Assembly (NCBI GenBank): GCA_029856045.1
Contig: JAHQWG010000043.1
Coordinates: 32,001-96,000 of the forward strand
Length of the DNA: 64,000 nt
Direction of reading: 5' to 3'
Source of the DNA: Promethearchaeia archaeon
GTDB lineage: Archaea; Asgardarchaeota; Lokiarchaeia; Sigyniarchaeales; SOKP01
Shown here: piece after piece, positions 17,180 through 30,396 of the stretch
Layout of the letters: every line of letters begins with the position of its first letter
Position numbering within the stretch: the stretch's first letter is position 1
Position numbers and translations under genes: made by a program
Notes under the pieces: generated by a model
Told to the model about the DNA's origin: nothing
What the model saw: the letters and a program-made list of their open reading frames with translations, nothing else
The model's database searches: none

Positions 17180-17626
17180 CTAAATGTTGTTTAATGGTCC
17201 TAATTTCTTAATTTGATTTGTAAAAGTAGTTACTAATTCAGCAAATTTTTTCCCTTCACTTGCGGATATCCATTCAAGCCGAAATCTATCCTTTAATCCC
17301 AAATATTTTAAGATTTTCATTAACCGTTCAAATCTATCTTTTGTAAATTCATTCCCGCTAATATAGTGACAATCTCCTATATGACACCCAGTAACTAACA
17401 CACCATCTACATTATCCTTAAAAGATTTCAGAATAAAAGCTGGTTCAACTCGACCAGAACACATTACTCGAATTATTCTAATAGAGGCAGGATACTGAAA
17501 ACGAGATACTCCAGCCAAATCAGCTCCAGCATAGCTACACCAATTGCAGCAAAAACATACAATATTAGGTTTAAATTCCCTATCTTTTTTAACTTGTTTT
17601 TTATCTGATTTTTCTACGATTTTCAT
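17180..17626 (-). CDS. mvhD: MvhD [2Fe-2S] subunit, all-Cys paralog
   Basis: [38 protein letters not shown]. Confidence 0.93.
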
Positions 17627-17645
17627 ATTTTTTCATTTATTCTCA

Positions 17646-20600
17646 TTAATTTTTTAAATAAGCCTTAATCATCGCATTTATTTGTTTAAAACTAAAATGT
17701 GAAATAAATATGGCCGAATTAGGGCATTGAACACCACAGGTACCACATCCTTTACATAACGCAGAATTAATATTGGATTTTTTTAAACAAAGTGTATAAT
17801 CTTCAAATGTTTTTTCAACCTCAATTAATTCTATTGCGTTATATGGACAAACGTCAGCACATTTCCCGCAGCCGATGCAATAATCTTCAATTACCTCAGC
17901 AACAAGACCAGAAGTTTTCATTTCTTTAGCACTTAAAATCCTGATAGCTCTTCCAGCTGCACCATTTGCTTGAGCTATTGATTCTTGAATATTCTTAGGC
18001 CAATGAGCGCAACCACATAAAAAAACTCCATCTGTTGCAAAATCAATAGGTCTTAGTTTAACATGAGCTTCTAGAAAAAAACCACTTTGATCTTGCGGAA
18101 CTTTCAGCATTTTTGATAATTCTTTAAAATTTTCAGGTGCAATCATAGGTGTAGCTAAAATTATAAGATCGCCATAAAATTCTACTTCTCCTTTTAAATT
18201 GTGTTCGAATAACGTAATTTTATAATTAAATTTTCCATTTTTAGTTTTTGAAATTATAGGAAGTTTATCCAATGAATATCGTAAGAATAAAGCGTTTTTT
18301 CTTGAATCTCTATAAAATTCTTCATTTCCTTTTTTGGACATTTGAAGATCTCGATAAATTAAAATTAATGCCAAATCAGGTTTTAATTTCTTTAAGATAT
18401 TAATATTCTTTAATGCATTTGTACAACATATATTGGAACAATATGTTATACCCTCTTTTTGTCTGGAATTCACACATAAAATAAATGTAATACTTTTAAT
18501 ATTATCTAGCCATTCTATATTTTCTTTCCTTAATTTTTGCTCTAATTCAAGTTGTGTAATAACATTTTTTTCTTTTTTATAATTGTATATTGTTTCCGGT
18601 ATCAACTCATTCGCTCCAGTTGCAACAATTATTATTCCAACTTTTATATTATTTACTTTATTTCCTTTAGTGGTTATTATAACATCATAATTTCCAATAT
18701 ATCCCCTAATTTCCGTGATATTTGAATTCAAATAAATATTAATGTTTGAATGTGATTTTACTTTATTTACAAAAGGTTCTAAAAATTCTGAGGCTTTTTG
18801 ATATCCTGGGAAAATTTGATATAAATTATTTAAATTTCCACCAAGTTTAGATTCCTTTTCTACAAGATGGGTTGTAAACCCTTGTATTGCAATATTTAAT
18901 GTGGCTATTAAACCAGAAATGCCACCTCCGATTATTAATGCCTCTGGAGTAATTGATAGTTTTGATTCTTTTTGTGGTTTTAATAATCTCGATTTTGCAA
19001 CAGCCATTTCTATGAGGTCTTTGGCTTTCTTAGTTCCATCCACTTTTTGTTCCATATGTACCCAAGAACATTGATCTCGAATATTAACCATTTCAAAAAG
19101 ATATTTATTCAAACCCGCTTCTTCACATGTTTCTTGAAATAATTTTTCATGGGTTCTAGGCGTACAGGACGCAACTATAAATCTATTTAAATCATACTCA
19201 GCAATTAATTCCTTAATTCTAGTTTGGGAATCACTAGAACATGAATATAAATTATCTACTGCAACAGTCACATTAGGTAATGTTTTGATATATTCTAAAA
19301 CCTGGGGAACATCTACATATTTTCCAATATTTATTCCACAATGGCAAATCATAACACCTATGCAAGGTTCATCTTCTAAATTTATCTTTTTTTCAGGTAC
19401 AGATACTACCTTTTCTTTTAATAGAGTATTTCTCACTAGATATAGTAATGTTGAAACCTTATTTGCTACTCCACTTGCATCAGCAACTGTTTCAGGGATA
19501 TCTAATGGTCCTTGACAAAAACCACATAGAAAAATTCCTTCTTGTTCAGATGATAATTTATCATATAATGTCTTTTCTTTAAAAAACTTATATTTATCAA
19601 CGTTTATTCCTAATATTTTGGCAACCTTCTCAGAATCCTCAGATGGTACTAATGGTGTTGCTAAAACTACTAAATTTGCCCTTAAATCATGAAATTTCCC
19701 ATCATCGAGATCTTCATATTTTATAATTAAATCTTTAGTCTTAGGGTCTTCTACTATTTTGCTAATTTTTGAATTAAAATATTTAACCCCATACTCATCT
19801 TGTGCTCTTTGAGTATATTCATAAAAATTTTTCCCATATGCCCTCAAATCATGCCTAAAAATATAACATTCTGAAGAATTCGAATGTTCTTTAGTAATTA
19901 TTGCTTCTTTTGCTGTATACATACAACAGACACTAGAACAATAAGGAATTCCAATATGAAAATCTCTAGAACCAGCACATTGTATAAAAGCAATTTTATG
20001 GGGTTCTTTCTCATCTGATAATCTTAAAACGTGCCCCTCGAATGGACCAGAAGCACATAAAATCCTTTCATACTCTAAAGAGGTAATAACATTTTCATAT
20101 TTATAACCCCAATTATCTGGAAGTTTAGAAGCTAACATATCAAAACCAATAGCAACTATAATTGCCCCAACTTCTATTTGGACTTCTTCTGGTTTCTGCT
20201 CAAAATTAATCGCTTGGGCTTCACAGATTCTTTCACAAACTCTACATACCCCTTTATTCAAAAATAAGCACATATCTGAGTCTATTAAATAAACTGGAGG
20301 TACAGCTTGTGGAAAGGGGATATAAATAGATTTTCTTCTCCCCAAATTCATATCAAAAATATTTGGAGCCTCAATCTTAGGACATTTCGAGGCACAATCT
20401 CCACAACCCTTACATTTATCCTCATCCACATATCTGGGTTTTTTTAAAATTTTTATAAAAAAATGACCTGCATGACCTGATACTTCAATGACTTCTGAAT
20501 AAGTCATTAATTTAATATTTGGATTTCTAAAAACCTCAACCATTTTTGGAGCAAGAATACATAAAGAACAATCATTAGTAGGAAATGTTTTGTCTAATTG

Positions 20601-20771
20601 AGCCATACGTCCTCCAATTGAAGGAGTCTTTTCTACTAGAAATACTTTAAATCCCATTTCAGTTAAATCTAAAGAGGCTTGAATTCCTGCAATACCACCA
20701 CCAATTACTAAGGCTGCTCCGATTAAATCATCGGTTTGACTTTTTTGTGATGAGTTTTTACTTTTACTCAT
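17646..20771 (-). CDS. hdrA: Large HdrA-like flavoprotein with two FAD modules, all-Cys
   Basis: Two GGGIxG motifs, QLDKTFPTNDCSLC, internal CHCGINI / SCTPRTHE / NIRDQCSWVH, ferredoxin motifs; 1041 aa. Confidence 0.88.
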   Translation of the reverse strand: MSKSKNSSQKSQTDDLIGAALVIGGGIAGIQASLDLTEMGFKVFLVEKTPSIGGRMAQLDKTFPTNDCSLCILAPKMVEVFRNPNIKLMTYSEVIEVSGHAGHFFIKILKKPRYVDEDKCKGCGDCASKCPKIEAPNIFDMNLGRRKSIYIPFPQAVPPVYLIDSDMCLFLNKGVCRVCERICEAQAINFEQKPEEVQIEVGAIIVAIGFDMLASKLPDNWGYKYENVITSLEYERILCASGPFEGHVLRLSDEKEPHKIAFIQCAGSRDFHIGIPYCSSVCCMYTAKEAIITKEHSNSSECYIFRHDLRAYGKNFYEYTQRAQDEYGVKYFNSKISKIVEDPKTKDLIIKYEDLDDGKFHDLRANLVVLATPLVPSEDSEKVAKILGINVDKYKFFKEKTLYDKLSSEQEGIFLCGFCQGPLDIPETVADASGVANKVSTLLYLVRNTLLKEKVVSVPEKKINLEDEPCIGVMICHCGINIGKYVDVPQVLEYIKTLPNVTVAVDNLYSCSSDSQTRIKELIAEYDLNRFIVASCTPRTHEKLFQETCEEAGLNKYLFEMVNIRDQCSWVHMEQKVDGTKKAKDLIEMAVAKSRLLKPQKESKLSITPEALIIGGGISGLIATLNIAIQGFTTHLVEKESKLGGNLNNLYQIFPGYQKASEFLEPFVNKVKSHSNINIYLNSNITEIRGYIGNYDVIITTKGNKVNNIKVGIIIVATGANELIPETIYNYKKEKNVITQLELEQKLRKENIEWLDNIKSITFILCVNSRQKEGITYCSNICCTNALKNINILKKLKPDLALILIYRDLQMSKKGNEEFYRDSRKNALFLRYSLDKLPIISKTKNGKFNYKITLFEHNLKGEVEFYGDLIILATPMIAPENFKELSKMLKVPQDQSGFFLEAHVKLRPIDFATDGVFLCGCAHWPKNIQESIAQANGAAGRAIRILSAKEMKTSGLVAEVIEDYCIGCGKCADVCPYNAIELIEVEKTFEDYTLCLKKSNINSALCKGCGTCGVQCPNSAIFISHFSFKQINAMIKAYLKN

Positions 20772-21958
20772 TTTTTAGATACCTCCTTATTTTGTTGTGA
20801 GGGTATAACTTCAATAACGTTTTCCAAGAGATTTGATAAATCTATAACATTAATATCTTGGACAGTTTCTGTATCATTTTGAAGGCATCTAAAGTGAATT
20901 TCACATTTTGGACAAGTAGTGACTAAATTATCAGCAACATCTTTAGCTTCCAACATTCTATGATATCGAAGTGCTTTTGCTTTATCAGAACAATTTAGCC
21001 AACAACTTACTCCGCAACATAAAGAATTGGATTTATTGTGAACCATTTCATTATATACATAACCTACTTTTTCCAATTCTTTAAAAATATATCTTATTTT
21101 TTCATATATATTAAAAGATTTTGGTAAAAATCTACTTAATCTACATGGATCATGATAAGTTAATTTGAGTATTTTTGTGTTTTTCTTTTCCTTTTTAAAT
21201 TTAATTTTATTTTCCTTCAATTTCTCATAAAGATATTCAACAAGGTGTTTAACCTTAACATTAAAATTCTCAAACATCGAAGGATAATCAATTTTAAGAG
21301 TCCTATACCCTTCTGCACAAGAAGTTATTATTAAAGAAGCTCCACTTCTTTCAAAAGATTTAATATTATGGATTGCTAATTTTTTAAAAGCTTCGATTTT
21401 ACCTTGCCACAATAAATCATGACCACAACATTTTTCATCTTTCAACAAAACTATTGGTTCATTTTCAATTTTGCATAATATTTTTAAAGTATCTACAGCA
21501 TTATTCATTGACTCATCGAATTCATAACTAAAAAGGGGAGCACATCCTACAAAATATAAGATATTTCCCTTTTCTGATACCTCACACCCAGAAGGAACCC
21601 ACTCAAAAGTCTTTTCCGGAGTAATATTTTCTTTACTCATAATTTCCGAAAGAAGTGTATAGAATCCCTTATGAGCAATTTTAGGCATAATTCCGGCATC
21701 TAACATTTTATTTCTTGCATCACGTACTATTTCAGCAAAATTAACTTCATATGGACATTTTTCAAGGCAAGAATTGCAAGTTAAGCAATCCCAAAGCATT
21801 CCACTTTCAACAATTCGATCTTCAAAACCTTCAATGATCAGTTGTATTATCCTACTAGGAGTGTATTTTTGGATTCTTCCCATTTGGCAAATGCCACTAC
21901 ACATAGCACATTGATAGCAATTGTTAAGATATTCTCTTAATTTTCCTTTTATAATCAT
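20768..21958 (-). CDS. HdrD/GlpC-like Fe-S protein (HdrC-like N-terminus plus two CCG domains)
   Basis: CYQCAMCSGIC, CLTCNSCLEKCP, CCGH, YHDPC, CCGV, TCPKC. Confidence 0.88.
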   Translation of the reverse strand: MIIKGKLREYLNNCYQCAMCSGICQMGRIQKYTPSRIIQLIIEGFEDRIVESGMLWDCLTCNSCLEKCPYEVNFAEIVRDARNKMLDAGIMPKIAHKGFYTLLSEIMSKENITPEKTFEWVPSGCEVSEKGNILYFVGCAPLFSYEFDESMNNAVDTLKILCKIENEPIVLLKDEKCCGHDLLWQGKIEAFKKLAIHNIKSFERSGASLIITSCAEGYRTLKIDYPSMFENFNVKVKHLVEYLYEKLKENKIKFKKEKKNTKILKLTYHDPCRLSRFLPKSFNIYEKIRYIFKELEKVGYVYNEMVHNKSNSLCCGVSCWLNCSDKAKALRYHRMLEAKDVADNLVTTCPKCEIHFRCLQNDTETVQDINVIDLSNLLENVIEVIPSQQNKEVSKK

Positions 21959-21983
21959 AGAATTGTCAGAAATCTGAGTAATT

Positions 21984-23096
21984 TTAAAATTTAACTCCTA
22001 AGTTTTTTTGCGATAAATTATATCTATCTTCTTTATATTTTGAAAACTGAATTAATTTTTCTAACATTTTATCTCTTTTTCCTTCTAAATCCTCTAAAAC
22101 TTTTATATATCCCTCATTTATAGCGGATTTAACAATATTTGTTCCAAGTTTGGTTCTAGGTATAGTTGTTGTATATTTTTCAGGTGATGATAATCCACCA
22201 AATGAAATATCTGCATAAATATTAGTAAAATCATTACATGCATTACAAGCGGAACGAATATAATCTGATAATTCATTAAACGATATATGCTGAATAACTT
22301 CACTTCCTTTTAATTTTATTAACATATCTTCCTTAATATTTAATTTCTCAATCTCATCAATTTTTAAATTAAATTGAGTTTCAAATTTCTCTTTTTTATC
22401 TTTACCCATTGTAAAATTTCCATAACAAAATAATCCAAGAAGATATTTTATATTTTGAGAGGGGGTAACCCCCATTTCTTGCATGCATCTTATCGTATAA
22501 ATTTGGCAAGGCGTTCCTATAACAGCTAACTTTTTAAATTTATATCTATTTAATGCCATAATTGTAGGACTATAAGTACTAAAATTGGCAATTTCTGTTA
22601 CTTGTGAAGAAATATCAAAATGAGAACCTGCAGCTAAAATTAAATCATCTTTAGATTTTGCAATCATTGAATCTCTCGAAAATGGTCCCAACTTTTTTGA
22701 AACGATTGCTCCATCAATTAAATTATGTTCTAATAAATACAATAATATAGCAGATACTACTCCACCATCAGTTCCATTTTTTAAGAGATCTTTATCTAAC
22801 GCTTGAAATGAATATATCTTTTCATAATTGCCAAGTGGTTTGATATAATTATATTGATTATTTAAATCATTTTCTAATACTTTAGTTTGTGGACAAATAT
22901 GATAACATATTCCGCACTCTAAGCATTCATTTTCATTTATATATTGTGGTGGCAAATCTGGTTTAATAAAATCAATAATCTTATAATCAGCAGAACTACA
23001 AAAACTTACACACCCACCACATAATTGACAAATGCCTTTATCATGAACTTCTTTAATTAAATCTTTAAAATTTTTTATTGGTTTATCTTGACTCAT
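21984..23096 (-). CDS. FrhB/FpoF-like F420-dependent oxidoreductase subunit with 2[4Fe-4S] domain
   Basis: CQLCGGCVSFC, CLECGICYHICP, DGGVVS, GTPCQ, GLFC, CNACNDF, ADISFG. Confidence 0.88.
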   Translation of the reverse strand: MSQDKPIKNFKDLIKEVHDKGICQLCGGCVSFCSSADYKIIDFIKPDLPPQYINENECLECGICYHICPQTKVLENDLNNQYNYIKPLGNYEKIYSFQALDKDLLKNGTDGGVVSAILLYLLEHNLIDGAIVSKKLGPFSRDSMIAKSKDDLILAAGSHFDISSQVTEIANFSTYSPTIMALNRYKFKKLAVIGTPCQIYTIRCMQEMGVTPSQNIKYLLGLFCYGNFTMGKDKKEKFETQFNLKIDEIEKLNIKEDMLIKLKGSEVIQHISFNELSDYIRSACNACNDFTNIYADISFGGLSSPEKYTTTIPRTKLGTNIVKSAINEGYIKVLEDLEGKRDKMLEKLIQFSKYKEDRYNLSQKNLGVKF

Positions 23097-23113
23097 TTTT
23101 TAATAAAATTTTA

Positions 23114-24595
23114 TTATTTTTTTACATCGAATTCAATTTTTTTACATTTTGAATTTTTAATTCCTGAAATTTTCTTAACCAAACCGAATCCAGGTTTTAC
23201 TTCAGCTAAATCCTTAACTTCTACTAAATTGCCATTTATTAATTTATTAAATAAATCATTCCCAACTTTTGTTCTTGTAATAACTGAAGACCAGCCTGCA
23301 CTAGAACCTATTGAACCTACTGAAATATCTGCAAATTCGGACGTTAAATCACTACAATAATGGCATACATCTCTTGCTAAGGAAGTTACTTCTTTTAATG
23401 GAACTTTGGCTTCTTCTCCATTTTTATCTTTGATAATAAATTTTCCTCCACTAATGTCCATTTTTAAAATGTTCTCTAATTTCTTATTAAAAATTTCAGT
23501 GCTTATTTTGATAACATTATCATAGCTGAATGATTCCATGCAGAATAAACCAATAGTATATTTAATATTATTAAAAAAAGATGTTCCAATTGGATAAATA
23601 CTTCCTTTTTTGAGTGCTAACATCATACATGGAGTTCCAACGACTGCAATTTTATCAAATTTTTGTGCTTCATTCAAAATTGTTAAACTTGGAGAATTAG
23701 CATATTTTGTACCAGCGGTTTTATAAAGATCATCAACATTCTCAATTATAATAGGTTTTGGCCTCCAAATATCTTCAGAATGGGTTACTGCTATCGCAGC
23801 ATCAATTTCTTTTTCTTTTAGTAAATAATATAACAATGTTGTTATTATACCACCATCTTGGCATACTTCTTTAATTTCATCACTTTTTGTACTTGCAGTA
23901 TATGCATTTATATAATAATTACTTGCGGCACCATCCTTCAAATTAGGATTTAATTTATTTAAAACTGTAAAAATATGCTCAGATGGAAATGACCTCGGGC
24001 AAACAGAAAAACAAAGTCCGCATTTAATGCAAGTCTCAGAATCAATTTTAAGATCATCTGCAGTTACTGTTATTGAGCCAACTGGGCATATTGATGAACA
24101 ATAACCACAATTACAACAAAAATTATTCTCAAATACTAAAGACACTGGCTCAAAATAATTTTCTCGAAAAGAATTATCAAGGGATTTGGCTTGATATCGA
24201 ATAATTTCAATCTTAATTTCTTTATCTATCAAATTTCCCTCTTTATTTTTTACTTTTTTAATTTCTGTCTTTATTTCAATTAATTTTTCAACATAACCTT
24301 GTTGGGTTAAATATTCAACTGTTTGTACTAATTTTTTCTTATCATATTCCACTTTCTCCACTATTTCTTCAAGAGTAAGCAGAGGAAGCCCTATTAATTT
24401 TTTTAATATTAAATTTCTTTCTGTCTCAGCATCGAGAAGTGAATCTAAAATAAAATTAAAATCTTCCTCACTAAATCTTCCAAATTTTAAAATATCATCT
24501 TTTCCTTCATATAATGCACGAATTTGAAAATTACTTATAGCGTTATATGTAGATTCCATTAGATTTTTTAGATCAGTATTTTCTATAAGATTCAC
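23114..24595 (-). CDS. FrhB-like subunit with N-terminal helical/winged-helix extension and 2[4Fe-4S] domain
   Basis: CCNCGYCSSICP, CIKCGLCFSVCP, QDGG, AGTKY, GTPC, GLFCMESF, CHYCSD, ADISVG. Confidence 0.88.
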   Translation of the reverse strand: MNLIENTDLKNLMESTYNAISNFQIRALYEGKDDILKFGRFSEEDFNFILDSLLDAETERNLILKKLIGLPLLTLEEIVEKVEYDKKKLVQTVEYLTQQGYVEKLIEIKTEIKKVKNKEGNLIDKEIKIEIIRYQAKSLDNSFRENYFEPVSLVFENNFCCNCGYCSSICPVGSITVTADDLKIDSETCIKCGLCFSVCPRSFPSEHIFTVLNKLNPNLKDGAASNYYINAYTASTKSDEIKEVCQDGGIITTLLYYLLKEKEIDAAIAVTHSEDIWRPKPIIIENVDDLYKTAGTKYANSPSLTILNEAQKFDKIAVVGTPCMMLALKKGSIYPIGTSFFNNIKYTIGLFCMESFSYDNVIKISTEIFNKKLENILKMDISGGKFIIKDKNGEEAKVPLKEVTSLARDVCHYCSDLTSEFADISVGSIGSSAGWSSVITRTKVGNDLFNKLINGNLVEVKDLAEVKPGFGLVKKISGIKNSKCKKIEFDVKK

Positions 24596-24619: not shown

Positions 24620-24698
24620 CCCCCATATCCCTTGCAGGGATGTCCCAATAAAATTTCTTAATTTTAAGCTTTAATTTTAAAGATCATTCAAATGGGGG
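24620..24698 (-). ncRNA. Eukaryote-type (type II) SECIS element
   Basis: RNA reads CCCCCAU-UUGA-AUGAU-CUUUAAAAUU-AAA-G-CUUA-AAAU-UAAG-A-AAUUUUAUUG-GGAC-AUCCCUGCAAGGGAU-AUGGGGG. UGAU/GGAC core with tandem G.A pairs, 10-position helix II (two U.U), unpaired AAA, minihelix III, helix I CCCCCAU/AUGGGGG; directly 3' of two UGA-containing genes. Confidence 0.85.
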
Positions 24699-25155
24699 TT
24701 TTAGTTTTTAATTTTTTATCTGCATCTTTTATTTCTGCCTTAAAAACTGCTTGATCTGTTTTTAATGGGTTCAATCCCAATTTTTCTATTTTATTTACCA
24801 TATCTTCGACCGATTTTACAAATTTTACAGCTTCAGCTCCAGTGCAGTTATACATGTTTACTCGGTCTCCTCCCAAACCACGCCTATCTAGAATTCGCCT
24901 AACAAATTCGACATGTTTTGCAGCGATAAAGTTTCCAGTTTTAAATTCACATTGATTTTCTAGTCAGCCTACAACCATTACTCCATCGGCACCATTATTA
25001 ATTGCATAGATTAGGTGTTTTATATCAACTCTACCTGTACAGCGCAGACGAATAATTTTTACATTGGGACTATATTTCAATCTTGAAACACCAGCTAAAT
25101 CTGCAGCACTATAACCTCATTTATTACAAGCAAATGTAATGATATTCATTTTCAT
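24688..25155 (-). CDS. vhuD: Selenocysteine-containing MvhD/VhuD (155 aa, Sec13 and Sec64)
   Basis: MKMNIITFACNK-U-GYSAADLAG...RLRCTGRV...VVG-U-LENQC; TGA at 25119-25117 and 24966-24964 align to Cys in paralog 17180..17626. Confidence 0.92.
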
Positions 25156-25178: not shown

Positions 25179-27122
25179 TTATGCATTTTCCTCCTTTACT
25201 AATGCTAAGACTTGATTAAATATTTGCTCATCTGTATAATATCTAATTTGTATTGCTTGAGTTGGACAACAAGTTGCACAGATTCCACATCCGTCACAAT
25301 TGATCTCATCGACCTCAGCAATTTTTCCTTCAGGTACAATAATAGCATTCTTTGGACAATTTTTTTCGCAGCGACAACAAGAAATACAATTTTCTTCATC
25401 AACAATCGCACATATTAATTCAAGCTCCGCTTCTCCCTTGGATGTTAATTCTGCAACCTTACTTGCGGTTGCTCTCGCTTGAGAAACCGAGTATGATATA
25501 TTTTTTGGTCCTTGCGCAAAACCACAAATATAAATCCCTAGATATTTTGTTTCTTGAGGACTTAAGCCAAAATGATGTTCAGTCAGGTATCCATTTGTAT
25601 CATAATCAATTCCAAGAACATCTGCTATTTGTTTCGTTCCTTTAGATGGTAATACTGCAGTTGATAAAACTACTAAGTCTGCATCAATTTTTATTATCTC
25701 ATCTGTTAATGAAGAATATACTCTTACCTTGAGATTTTTGGTTTCAGAATCCTCTATTAGTTCTGGAACTTTACCTCGAATAAAGTCAATACCTTTATCA
25801 CGAGTTCTCATATAGTATTCTTCAAAGTTCTTTTCAGATGCTCTTATATCAATGTAGCAGATGGTTATATGGCAATCAGGGATTTCTTCTTTAAGTAATT
25901 TAGCATTTTTTAAAGCGATCATGCAACACACACCAGAACAATACGCTCTTTCTGTATCTCTCGAGCCAACACATTGAATAAATAATATTTCTTTAGGTGT
26001 TTTTCCATCTGATGGTCTTTTTACATGGCCCATTGTTGGACCATTTGGTGCTAATATCCTTTCAAGCTGGATTTCGTTTATAACATTTTGATATTCTCCA
26101 TATCCATATTCTATAGGATTATATAAGTCCCAACCCGTTGCAACTATTATTGTACCCACTTCAATTTCGACATATTCAGGTTCTTGACTCAAATCAATTG
26201 CATGTGGCTCGCAAGCATCTACACAGGCATATCATTCAACGCAAGATTCTTTTTCAAGATCATAAACAAAAGGAATAGCTTGCCCAAAACATATATCGAT
26301 ACATTTTCTTGAACCTAAATTTTCTTGCCAATAATTTGGTATGTAAATTGGACATACTGGCGTACAATCTCCACAACCATTACACAAATCTTCTATAACA
26401 TATCTAGGTTTTTTCTTTATCGTAACTTCATAATTTCCAACATATCCTTCAACTTTATCAACTTCACTATAACTAATAATTTCAATATTTTCATTTCGAT
26501 TAGCTTCAAGCATTTTTGGACCAAGAATTCATATAGAACAATCATCAGTTGGAAATGTTCGATCTAACTGAGCCATTCTGCCCCCAATTGTAGTTTTACT
26601 CTCTATTAAATACACCCTTATTCCTTGATTTGCCAGATCTAATGCCGCATTTAATCCAGCGATTCCTCCACCAACTACCAAAGTAGCTTTTTTTATAGGA
26701 ATAATTTTTGTCGGTACTATTTCCAATCTTTTAGCCCTTTCATAACCTGCTCTGCTTAAAATCTTTGCTTTATTGGTTGCTGAAACTTCGTCTTCAGTAA
26801 TCCAAGAACATTGTTCTCTAATATTTACCATTTGAAAATAAAATTTACTAAGTCCTGCCCGTTCTAAAGACTCTCTATAAATCGGTTCATGAGTTCTAGG
26901 AGTTCAAGCTGCCGCTACAACCCGATTTATCTTTTTTTCTTTGATATCATCCATTATTAATTTCTGCCCTTGTTCAGTACATAAAAAACTAAAGATGCGA
27001 CTTGTTTCAATATTATCAAATTGTTTCATATACTCTGCAACTTCAGAACAATTAACTTTCGCAGAAATATTCAAGCCTCATTGACATGCATAATATCCAA
27101 TGCGTAAAATTTCTTTACTCAA
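25179..27122 (-). CDS. hdrA: Selenocysteine-containing HdrA (647 aa; Sec15, Sec73, Sec198, Sec297)
   Basis: Single frame from TTG 27122 to TAA 25179 with TGA at 27080, 26906, 26531 and 26234, in contexts CQ-U-GLNI, AA-U-TPRTHE, DDCSI-U-ILGPKM, CVE-U-YACVDAC; joins three ORF-track fragments without frameshift. Confidence 0.92.
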
Positions 27123-29484: not shown

Positions 29485-30396
29485 ATGAAAATTAGTTTAA
29501 TAGGATTATCTGGTTGTGGAAAAACCTCTTTATATTCGGTAATATTCGCGGAAAAAACACCTGAAGAAACAAAGGGATTATCTCCAACGATACTCTATGA
29601 AACAAGAAGGCATCCCTTTTTAGGATTAGAAATATCAATTTTTGATTTTGGAGGTCAAGACCAATACATCAAAGAATATCTTGATAAGCCGAAAATATTC
29701 ATGGGCACGGATGTTCTCGTGCCTGTCGTAGATTTACACGATCCAAATTCTTTTGATAAATCAAAAAAGTATTTTGAAGATGTTTTAAAGTTATATAAAG
29801 ATAATTATCAGAAACCAAAAGTATGTCTATTTTATCATAAATATGATACTGAAGATTATCAAAAGGAACTTTTAGATACAAATATAATTAAAGCTAAAGA
29901 GTTTTTTTCGGACATGTTCAAAGATTATAACCCACAAACTTTCCTAACGAGTATCTATGATCAGCAAAATTTAACAAAGATTTTCAGAGATATATTAATG
30001 GGATCTTATTCAGAATTAAAGGGTCATATAGAAAAAGCGGAAAAGCACTTACAGGAGATAAATGCACGAATTATTATTTCCGATATATCAGGAAATGTTT
30101 TGGTTCATAATGTTCAAGGAGTTTCAAGCGGACTATCATTAAGGGCAGACTTAAGAGACTTTATCAGTTCTTGTAATGTAATTAGAGAGAATGTCTTTTT
30201 ATCTGATTCTGCAGAGTTTAAAGGAAATTCAGAAGAAGGTAAAGAGCTTCAACTATATATCTTTAAATACATATTGGCTGTTTTAATAATGAAATCGGAA
30301 AAGAAATTGGATCCTGAATCGAGTGAAAAGATAAGAGTTCTCCTCGAAGATATGAAATTATTTTCTGATATAATTGTTTCTATCCATTCTGAATAA
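29485..30396 (+). CDS. Rag/Gtr1-like small GTPase with C-terminal roadblock-like domain
   Basis: G1 GLSGCGKT, G2 SPTI, G3 DFGGQ, Rag-type G4 HKYD and G5 TSIYD; C-terminal IIISDISGNVL. Confidence 0.85.
   Translation: MKISLIGLSGCGKTSLYSVIFAEKTPEETKGLSPTILYETRRHPFLGLEISIFDFGGQDQYIKEYLDKPKIFMGTDVLVPVVDLHDPNSFDKSKKYFEDVLKLYKDNYQKPKVCLFYHKYDTEDYQKELLDTNIIKAKEFFSDMFKDYNPQTFLTSIYDQQNLTKIFRDILMGSYSELKGHIEKAEKHLQEINARIIISDISGNVLVHNVQGVSSGLSLRADLRDFISSCNVIRENVFLSDSAEFKGNSEEGKELQLYIFKYILAVLIMKSEKKLDPESSEKIRVLLEDMKLFSDIIVSIHSE

Follow-up and report, generated by a model that had tools for sequence, protein, structure and literature searches.

An hdrA gene with four in-frame UGA codons at conserved cysteine positions, among them a recent change in the inserted ferredoxin, in a Promethearchaeia archaeon

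The window analyzed here is a 64-kb stretch of contig JAHQWG010000043.1 (positions 32,001 to 96,000, forward strand) from a metagenome-assembled genome (MAG) of a Promethearchaeia archaeon of the order Sigyniarchaeales. The source genome comprises 3.34 Mb in 55 contigs with a G+C content of 29%. A Gtr1/RagA-type GTPase encoded near hdrA is in keeping with a Lokiarchaeia-type Asgard archaeon. On the minus strand the window carries an hdrA gene interrupted by in-frame TGA codons, followed by a vhuD gene with two further TGA codons and by a selenocysteine insertion element (SECIS); the coordinates of these features and of the genes downstream are listed in Table 1. ORF calling with the standard genetic code cuts hdrA into four fragments, the ends of which are the TGAs. 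When TGA is translated as selenocysteine (Sec, U), a single frame of 647 residues results with exactly four in-frame TGA codons (U15, U73, U198 and U297), and this frame contains neither frameshifts nor internal TAA or TAG codons. A plus-strand reading of the same interval was rejected because stops occur throughout, and the gene is assigned to the minus strand. A preliminary description, made from the sequence without database searches, had reported one frame broken solely by four TGA codons at Cys positions of Fe-S motifs; its coordinates proved exact and each of its motifs was recovered.

Table 1. Features of the hdrA-vhuD locus, with positions in the window; Sec residues are predictions
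Feature	Position	Strand	Remarks
hdrA selenoprotein gene	25179..27122	minus	TTG start, 647 codons, TAA stop
UGA, Sec15	27078..27080	minus	ACQU motif (C-Q-U), N-terminal cluster domain; aligns to Cys13 of 5odc
UGA, Sec73	26904..26906	minus	AAAUTPRTHE motif; aligns to Cys71 of 5odc
UGA, Sec198	26529..26531	minus	DDCSIU, canonical HdrA Sec site; aligns to Cys197 of 5odc
UGA, Sec297	26232..26234	minus	CVEUYACVDAC; aligns to Cys in solved HdrA chains
vhuD/mvhD (FlpD family)	24688..25155	minus	155 aa; PF02662, E 1e-43
vhuD Sec13	25119-25117	minus	in-frame TGA
vhuD Sec64	24966-24964	minus	in-frame TGA
Shared Loki-type SECIS	24620..24698	minus	from comparison of paralogues and orthologues
SECIS lower stem (CCCCCAU/AUGGGGG)	24698-24692 / 24626-24620	minus	
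SECIS AUGA	24687-24684	minus	
SECIS helix	24683-24673 / 24655-24645	minus	two U.U mismatches
SECIS GA	24644-24643	minus	
SECIS extra GC hairpin	24642-24627	minus	
FrhB-like gene	23114-24595	minus	likely operon
FrhB-like gene	21984-23096	minus	likely operon
HdrD-like gene (Fer4 + 2xCCG)	20768-21958	minus	likely operon
Fused double HdrA, Cys only	17646-20771	minus	1041 aa; likely operon
MvhD, Cys only	17180-17626	minus	likely operon

The read-through protein is collinear with the solved HdrA chains, covering residues 6-644, and in the alignment with HdrA homologues proposed in the preliminary description all four TGA codons fall on Cys. The top match was 9sfi_A (E 5.4e-201, HdrA residues 7-639), followed by 5odc_A (E 1e-191) and 7bkb_A (E 2e-173). 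U198 stands opposite a modelled non-standard residue (X, Sec) in 9sfi, which is a Sec-HdrA of the Methanococcales type, and U297 lies in the inserted ferredoxin, where it takes the second Cys of the latter of two CxxCxxCxxxC motifs. The domains follow in the order N-terminal cluster domain, FAD/thioredoxin-reductase-like domain, inserted ferredoxin and C-terminal ferredoxin. Pfam matches were obtained to Pyr_redox_2, NAD_binding_8 and FAD_oxidored (residues 146-235) and to two ferredoxin (Fer4) domains, and the FAD-binding GxGxxG motif is present as VVGGGIAG. The cluster motifs expected of HdrA are the Cys of the N-terminal domain together with Cys197, the C-x10-C-x3-CC motif, and the 2x[4Fe-4S] ferredoxin motifs of the inserted and C-terminal domains. 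Measured against these, the sets for six [4Fe-4S] clusters are complete, as Cys or Sec, and conserved among the aligned homologues (positions 13, 15, 48, 73, 198, 247-257, 294-304, 384/395/399/400, 579-589 and 609-619). Cys-type HdrA of Methanothermococcus and Methanothermobacter (5odc, 8rvu) matches with 640 bits over residues 6-642 and retains the FAD domain as well as every cluster motif, but has Cys at all of the sites and involves no recoding. The Cys-only double HdrA of the same cluster agrees with the present protein at the motifs CHC, SCTPRTHE and CSLC, and its fourth motif carries an insertion (C-x7-C-x2-C-x3-C), consistent with the less clean alignment noted in the preliminary description.

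The vhuD gene starts 23 nt downstream of the hdrA stop codon, has its predicted Sec residues in the motifs CNKU and VGU, and itself ends in TGA. This stop codon abuts the AUGA core of the SECIS (UGAAUGA, 24684-24690, minus strand), and reading through it would give just seven more residues before a TAA. The SECIS has the AUGA...GA kink-turn core around a main helix and the A-rich start of the apical loop known from the lokiSECIS; its apical region is 17 nt long, A-rich, and begins with AAAG. It differs from the published lokiSECIS in its longer helix and apical region, since the genus has an 11-bp helix and 17-19 nt in place of the 9-bp stem and 11-nt loop. Orthologues of 65-70% identity have the published form (AUGA, 9-bp stem, 11-nt A-rich loop, GA/AA), in some cases shifted by one nucleotide (10+10 or 10+9), and additional apical pairing has been described for a few VhuD SECIS elements (PMC4989117). 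Applied to the orthologous elements, RNAalifold recovered both the helix and the lower stem and showed compensatory double changes at seven pairs. A scan of the whole window at the Rfam gathering thresholds gave no matches, so that the Rfam models miss this SECIS, and single-sequence folding of the 3' region was no better than that of shuffled sequences (z ~0); the element was recognized only through comparison of paralogues and orthologues. A short extra hairpin, rich in GC and with (U)GCA/GCG as its loop, is also present in all hdrA-vhuD SECIS elements examined, including the equivalents in L038-L048; it follows the GA core and precedes the 3' strand of the lower stem. A connection between the enlarged SECIS and the gain of the fourth Sec was considered and rejected, as the same variant occurs in the 86% identical lineage that has Cys297.

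The genome contains four Sec-hdrA genes, with 4, 3, 3 and 3 TGA codons. Each is followed by a two-Sec vhuD and then by a SECIS, and the same layout was found in 14 orthologous loci of relatives. The genes downstream on the minus strand (17180..24595) are likely the remainder of the hdrA-vhuD operon. Genes for a hydrogenase or for HdrBC, with which the bifurcating heterodisulfide reductase subunit HdrA reduces CoM-S-S-CoB, are absent from the cluster, and Sec and Cys forms of HdrA-MvhD thus occur side by side in one hydrogenase-free cluster. A further Cys-only HdrA of 785 aa with a C-terminal MvhD-like fusion is encoded elsewhere in the genome (C32:103012-105369).

Of the selenocysteine machinery that the preliminary description had proposed to look for, tRNA-Sec, SepSecS, SPS/SelD and EFSec are encoded in the genome, together with a PSTK-like gene. 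A tRNA-Sec with anticodon TCA was detected at 61 bits, above the Rfam cut-off, and is adjoined by the SepSecS gene; the 64-kb window itself contains no tRNA genes. An EFSec/SelB-type factor (268 bits) is encoded on the same contig, and a SelD/SPS gene interrupted by a single in-frame TGA (C44:100694-101497) lies on the contig of hdrA, approximately 4.7 kb past the end of the window. The PSTK-like gene matches the archaeal PSTK model over positions 1-241 of 249 (E 5.7e-43), with a score of 147 bits that is below the NCBIfam cut-off of 290.5.

Genes of this kind have been described before. Mariotti et al. 2016 (PMC4989117) reported Loki HdrA proteins with up to four Sec at five positions, encoded by genes that always precede VhuD and always end in UAA or UAG, with one lokiSECIS 3' of VhuD on which up to six UGAs, spread over ~2 kb, would depend. 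Huang et al. 2024 (PMC11227280) extended the hdrA-frhD pairing and the shared SECIS across Asgard archaea. The present locus has the same layout as the multi-Sec Loki HdrA of PMC4989117: hdrA ends in TAA, a two-Sec vhuD lies downstream on the same strand, and the SECIS follows vhuD. It likewise combines up to four Sec in HdrA with six UGAs per mRNA, here over ~2.4 kb, and Sec is always located at a conserved Cys, with the site near 198 always included. The Sec-HdrA of Methanococcales, known from the cryo-EM structure of the M. maripaludis Hdr-Vhu-Fwd complex (PMC13518236; PDB 9sfi), agrees with the present protein in domain architecture over the full length, carries Sec at its DC(S/A)xU site and is likewise paired with a two-Sec VhuD. 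That protein contains only one Sec, and its SECIS is of the archaeal type, whereas the present HdrA has three Sec more; the operon partners found here are FrhB-like and HdrD-like, and neither a [NiFe] hydrogenase nor HdrBC is among them.

The distribution of Sec positions was determined from an alignment of 54 HdrA sequences, taken from the source genome and from relatives, and from a TGA survey of 41 related genomes of the same order. HdrA matches in the 41 genomes carry one to five TGA codons; among those listed, approximately ten have four and one has five. The preliminary description had regarded four Sec as an unusually heavy load. This view was not upheld, as four-Sec Loki HdrA was published in 2016 (PMC4989117) and relatives carry one to five TGAs. 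All but two of the in-frame TGA codons in the 54 aligned sequences sit on columns otherwise occupied by Cys, a placement far beyond chance. Sec is found at ten Cys columns (15, 48, 73, 198, 247, 297, 399, 400, 589 and 615), frequently at 15, 48, 73 and 198 and rarely at 247, 399, 400, 589 and 615. Sec is thus able to occupy ten Cys positions of HdrA in this archaeal order. Position 15 is U in most Loki HdrA and Cys in few, position 73 is U across the orthologue group and in several paralogues and Cys elsewhere, and position 198 is U in 53 of the 54 sequences, the sole Cys belonging to an all-Cys paralogue.

The two TGA codons on non-Cys columns belong to L066 (G001:C125:22300-24500) and L082 (G002:C68:950-2850) and correspond to the equivalents of Leu161 and Gly90. 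L082 has an internal TAA as well, and pseudogenes or assembly errors may account for both cases. The match with five TGA codons, L064 (G020:C12:40300-42500), is a HdrA paralogue from a sister genus with TGA at columns 15, 198, 399, 400 and 615. Two of its predicted Sec residues are neighbors that make up the CC pair of the C-x3-CC motif, which belongs to the thioredoxin-reductase-domain cluster, and one is in the C-terminal ferredoxin.

At position 297 Sec is restricted, in the 54-sequence sample, to the source genus. All orthologues of 65-70% identity have TGT or TGC at this position, which is an example of the UGA/Cys alternation among relatives that the preliminary description had suggested looking for. 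Two metagenome contigs of 86-87% identity also have Cys297, in an identical EKESCVECYACVDAC context. The Cys-to-Sec change at 297 is recent and took place between proteins of 87% and 96% identity (~10-13% protein divergence). In PMC4989117 only the most C-terminal Sec site is located in a ferredoxin [4Fe-4S] motif, and 297 therefore lies outside its five positions. In the four-Sec HdrA of Lokiarchaeum GC14_75, listed in the supplement of PMC11227280, Sec occupies 15, 48, 73 and 198 and residue 297 is Cys, whereas the present gene uses 15, 73, 198 and 297. A non-exhaustive comparison of six-residue contexts did not find Sec at the 297 motif in the HdrA files of that supplement. The new element of the present gene is Sec at position 297, multi-Sec HdrA itself having been published.

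The four sites can be placed within the enzyme by comparison with published work on HdrA. Ligands of the N-terminal cluster (HA3/A3) are Cys residues of the N-terminal domain together with Cys197 of the other HdrA protomer (PMC9012536; PMC13518236), and low-potential electrons pass from FAD through HA3, HA5 and HA6 to ferredoxin (PMC6019823; PMC12350162). In the alignment U198 is the counterpart of Cys197, a trans ligand that reaches across to HA3 in the partner. What Sec197 does exactly is debated: a cryo-EM study of 2026 (PMC13518236) proposed that it takes part in a Sec-Cys selenylsulfide relay and is not a simple cluster ligand. The aligned HdrA sequences have four invariant Cys/Sec columns in the N-terminal domain (13, 15, 48 and 73). 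Three of these must ligate HA3, so that either U15 or U73, and possibly both, would be a ligand. Under the rule that applies to standard 2x[4Fe-4S] ferredoxins, U297 would directly ligate one of the clusters of the inserted ferredoxin, HA5 or HA6. The earlier view of these Cys as non-ligands (PMC4989117), which predates the 2017 structure, no longer holds. As placed by the alignment, all four predicted Sec residues are on the low-potential, ferredoxin-reducing branch, and the HA4 motif and the C-terminal ferredoxin have none. The preliminary description had distributed the Sec residues over the N-terminal cluster, a FAD-proximal cluster and the inserted ferredoxin; the CSIU motif does not belong to a separate FAD-proximal cluster, Cys197 being directed to HA3 of the partner (PMC9012536).

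The following mechanism is proposed. The hdrA gene would be co-transcribed with the two-Sec vhuD, and the six UGAs of the common mRNA would most likely be recoded by the one eukaryote-like SECIS just 3' of vhuD. Decoding would follow the archaeal/eukaryotic pathway with tRNA-Sec, PSTK, SepSecS, SPS and EFSec. Sec would then take the place of conserved Cys on the ferredoxin-reducing branch of a bifurcating HdrA, with U15 and U73 within the N-terminal domain that holds the [4Fe-4S] cluster HA3. Incorporation of selenium, iron ligation by the individual Sec residues and a shift in redox potential are inferred, and the retuning of potentials put forward in the preliminary description may be one outcome. 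As a tentative reading, each type of low-potential [4Fe-4S] cluster may have at least one selenolate ligand throughout the genus, HA3 having two or three (U15, U73 and U198 of the partner) and the inserted-ferredoxin cluster one (U297). If true, the enzyme would offer a naturally occurring series of cubane clusters with Sec ligation.

A serious alternative, if a somewhat doubtful one, is that Sec is inserted but that the load is near-neutral, any change of a Cys codon to TGA being decoded via the SECIS as a similar ligand and the sites toggling by drift. Such toggling would explain the occurrence of Sec at ten different Cys positions, patchily over paralogues and genera, as well as a switch at 297 that dates back no further than ~10-13% protein divergence and left the local context unchanged; Cys-only copies of HdrA and MvhD in the same operon and genome also agree with it. 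It is less easily reconciled with sites 15, 73 and 198, which stay TGA across sequences of 47-70% identity, with the TGA at 297 being kept in five assemblies, or with the location of all four Sec sites on one electron-transfer branch. Sec insertion is costly, and its persistence therefore suggests some benefit. For the choice between redox retuning and neutral toggling, the close relatives with Cys297 and Sec297 are a natural pair for testing the effect of Sec ligation on [4Fe-4S] potential and bifurcation. Multi-Sec HdrA and a single SECIS for six UGAs, for their part, were already described for Lokiarchaeota.

Conservation and selection bear on the question of whether hdrA is a live gene. 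All four TGA codons are present in three other species-level genomes of the genus, obtained in different studies, with orthologues of 96-98% identity. A JGI metagenome contig also keeps all four, so that the four-TGA gene is retained in one metagenome contig and in four assemblies of the genus. Codons flanking the TGAs vary synonymously while the TGAs are unchanged. Pairwise dN/dS of the orthologues is 0.11-0.32, and pooled pN/pS is 0.18 for segment 16-72, 0.19 for 74-197, 0.08 for 199-296 and 0.21 for 298-646; the last value indicates that the region past the last TGA is also constrained. The relaxed selection typical of a pseudogene, which the preliminary description had named as evidence against its reading, was thus not observed in any segment. 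A decaying hdrA paralogue with four nonsense mutations, redundant with other HdrA copies, is a highly improbable explanation. The breaking of hdrA into four ORFs by gene callers and the many further HdrA copies in the genome could be taken to favor it, but the interrupting codons are exclusively TGA, each on a Cys column, in a frame free of frameshifts and of internal TAA or TAG; they are kept in five assemblies, every segment is constrained, and the genome has a SECIS and Sec machinery. The same fragmentation by gene callers causes HdrA to be under-annotated in Asgard MAGs.

Errors of sequencing or assembly, or a reassignment of TGA throughout the genome (for example to Trp, Gly or Cys), are still more improbable: the source is a MAG of low G+C content in many contigs, but the same TGAs recur in independent assemblies from different studies, and TGA terminates 175 of the 1,399 stop-to-stop ORFs that have 300 codons or more, which shows that it is otherwise an ordinary stop codon without genome-wide recoding. 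These data contradict a pseudogene, a sequencing error and a reassigned code alike, and the locus is a genuine, intact hdrA, very probably a functional selenoprotein gene with its UGAs decoded via the shared SECIS.

Two minor observations were made on the proteins of this region. BLASTP of the HdrA N-terminal domain against VhuD gave no match. In the hhalign comparison the two were collinear, with U15 opposite U13, C48 opposite C39 and U73 opposite U64 (HdrA-VhuD), but the alignment was statistically weak (E 0.05, probability 1%) and may be taken as no more than a hint. A small GTPase of the Gtr1/RagA family (29485-30396, plus strand; Pfam E 2e-26) adjoins a FrhB-like gene that is divergent from hdrA.
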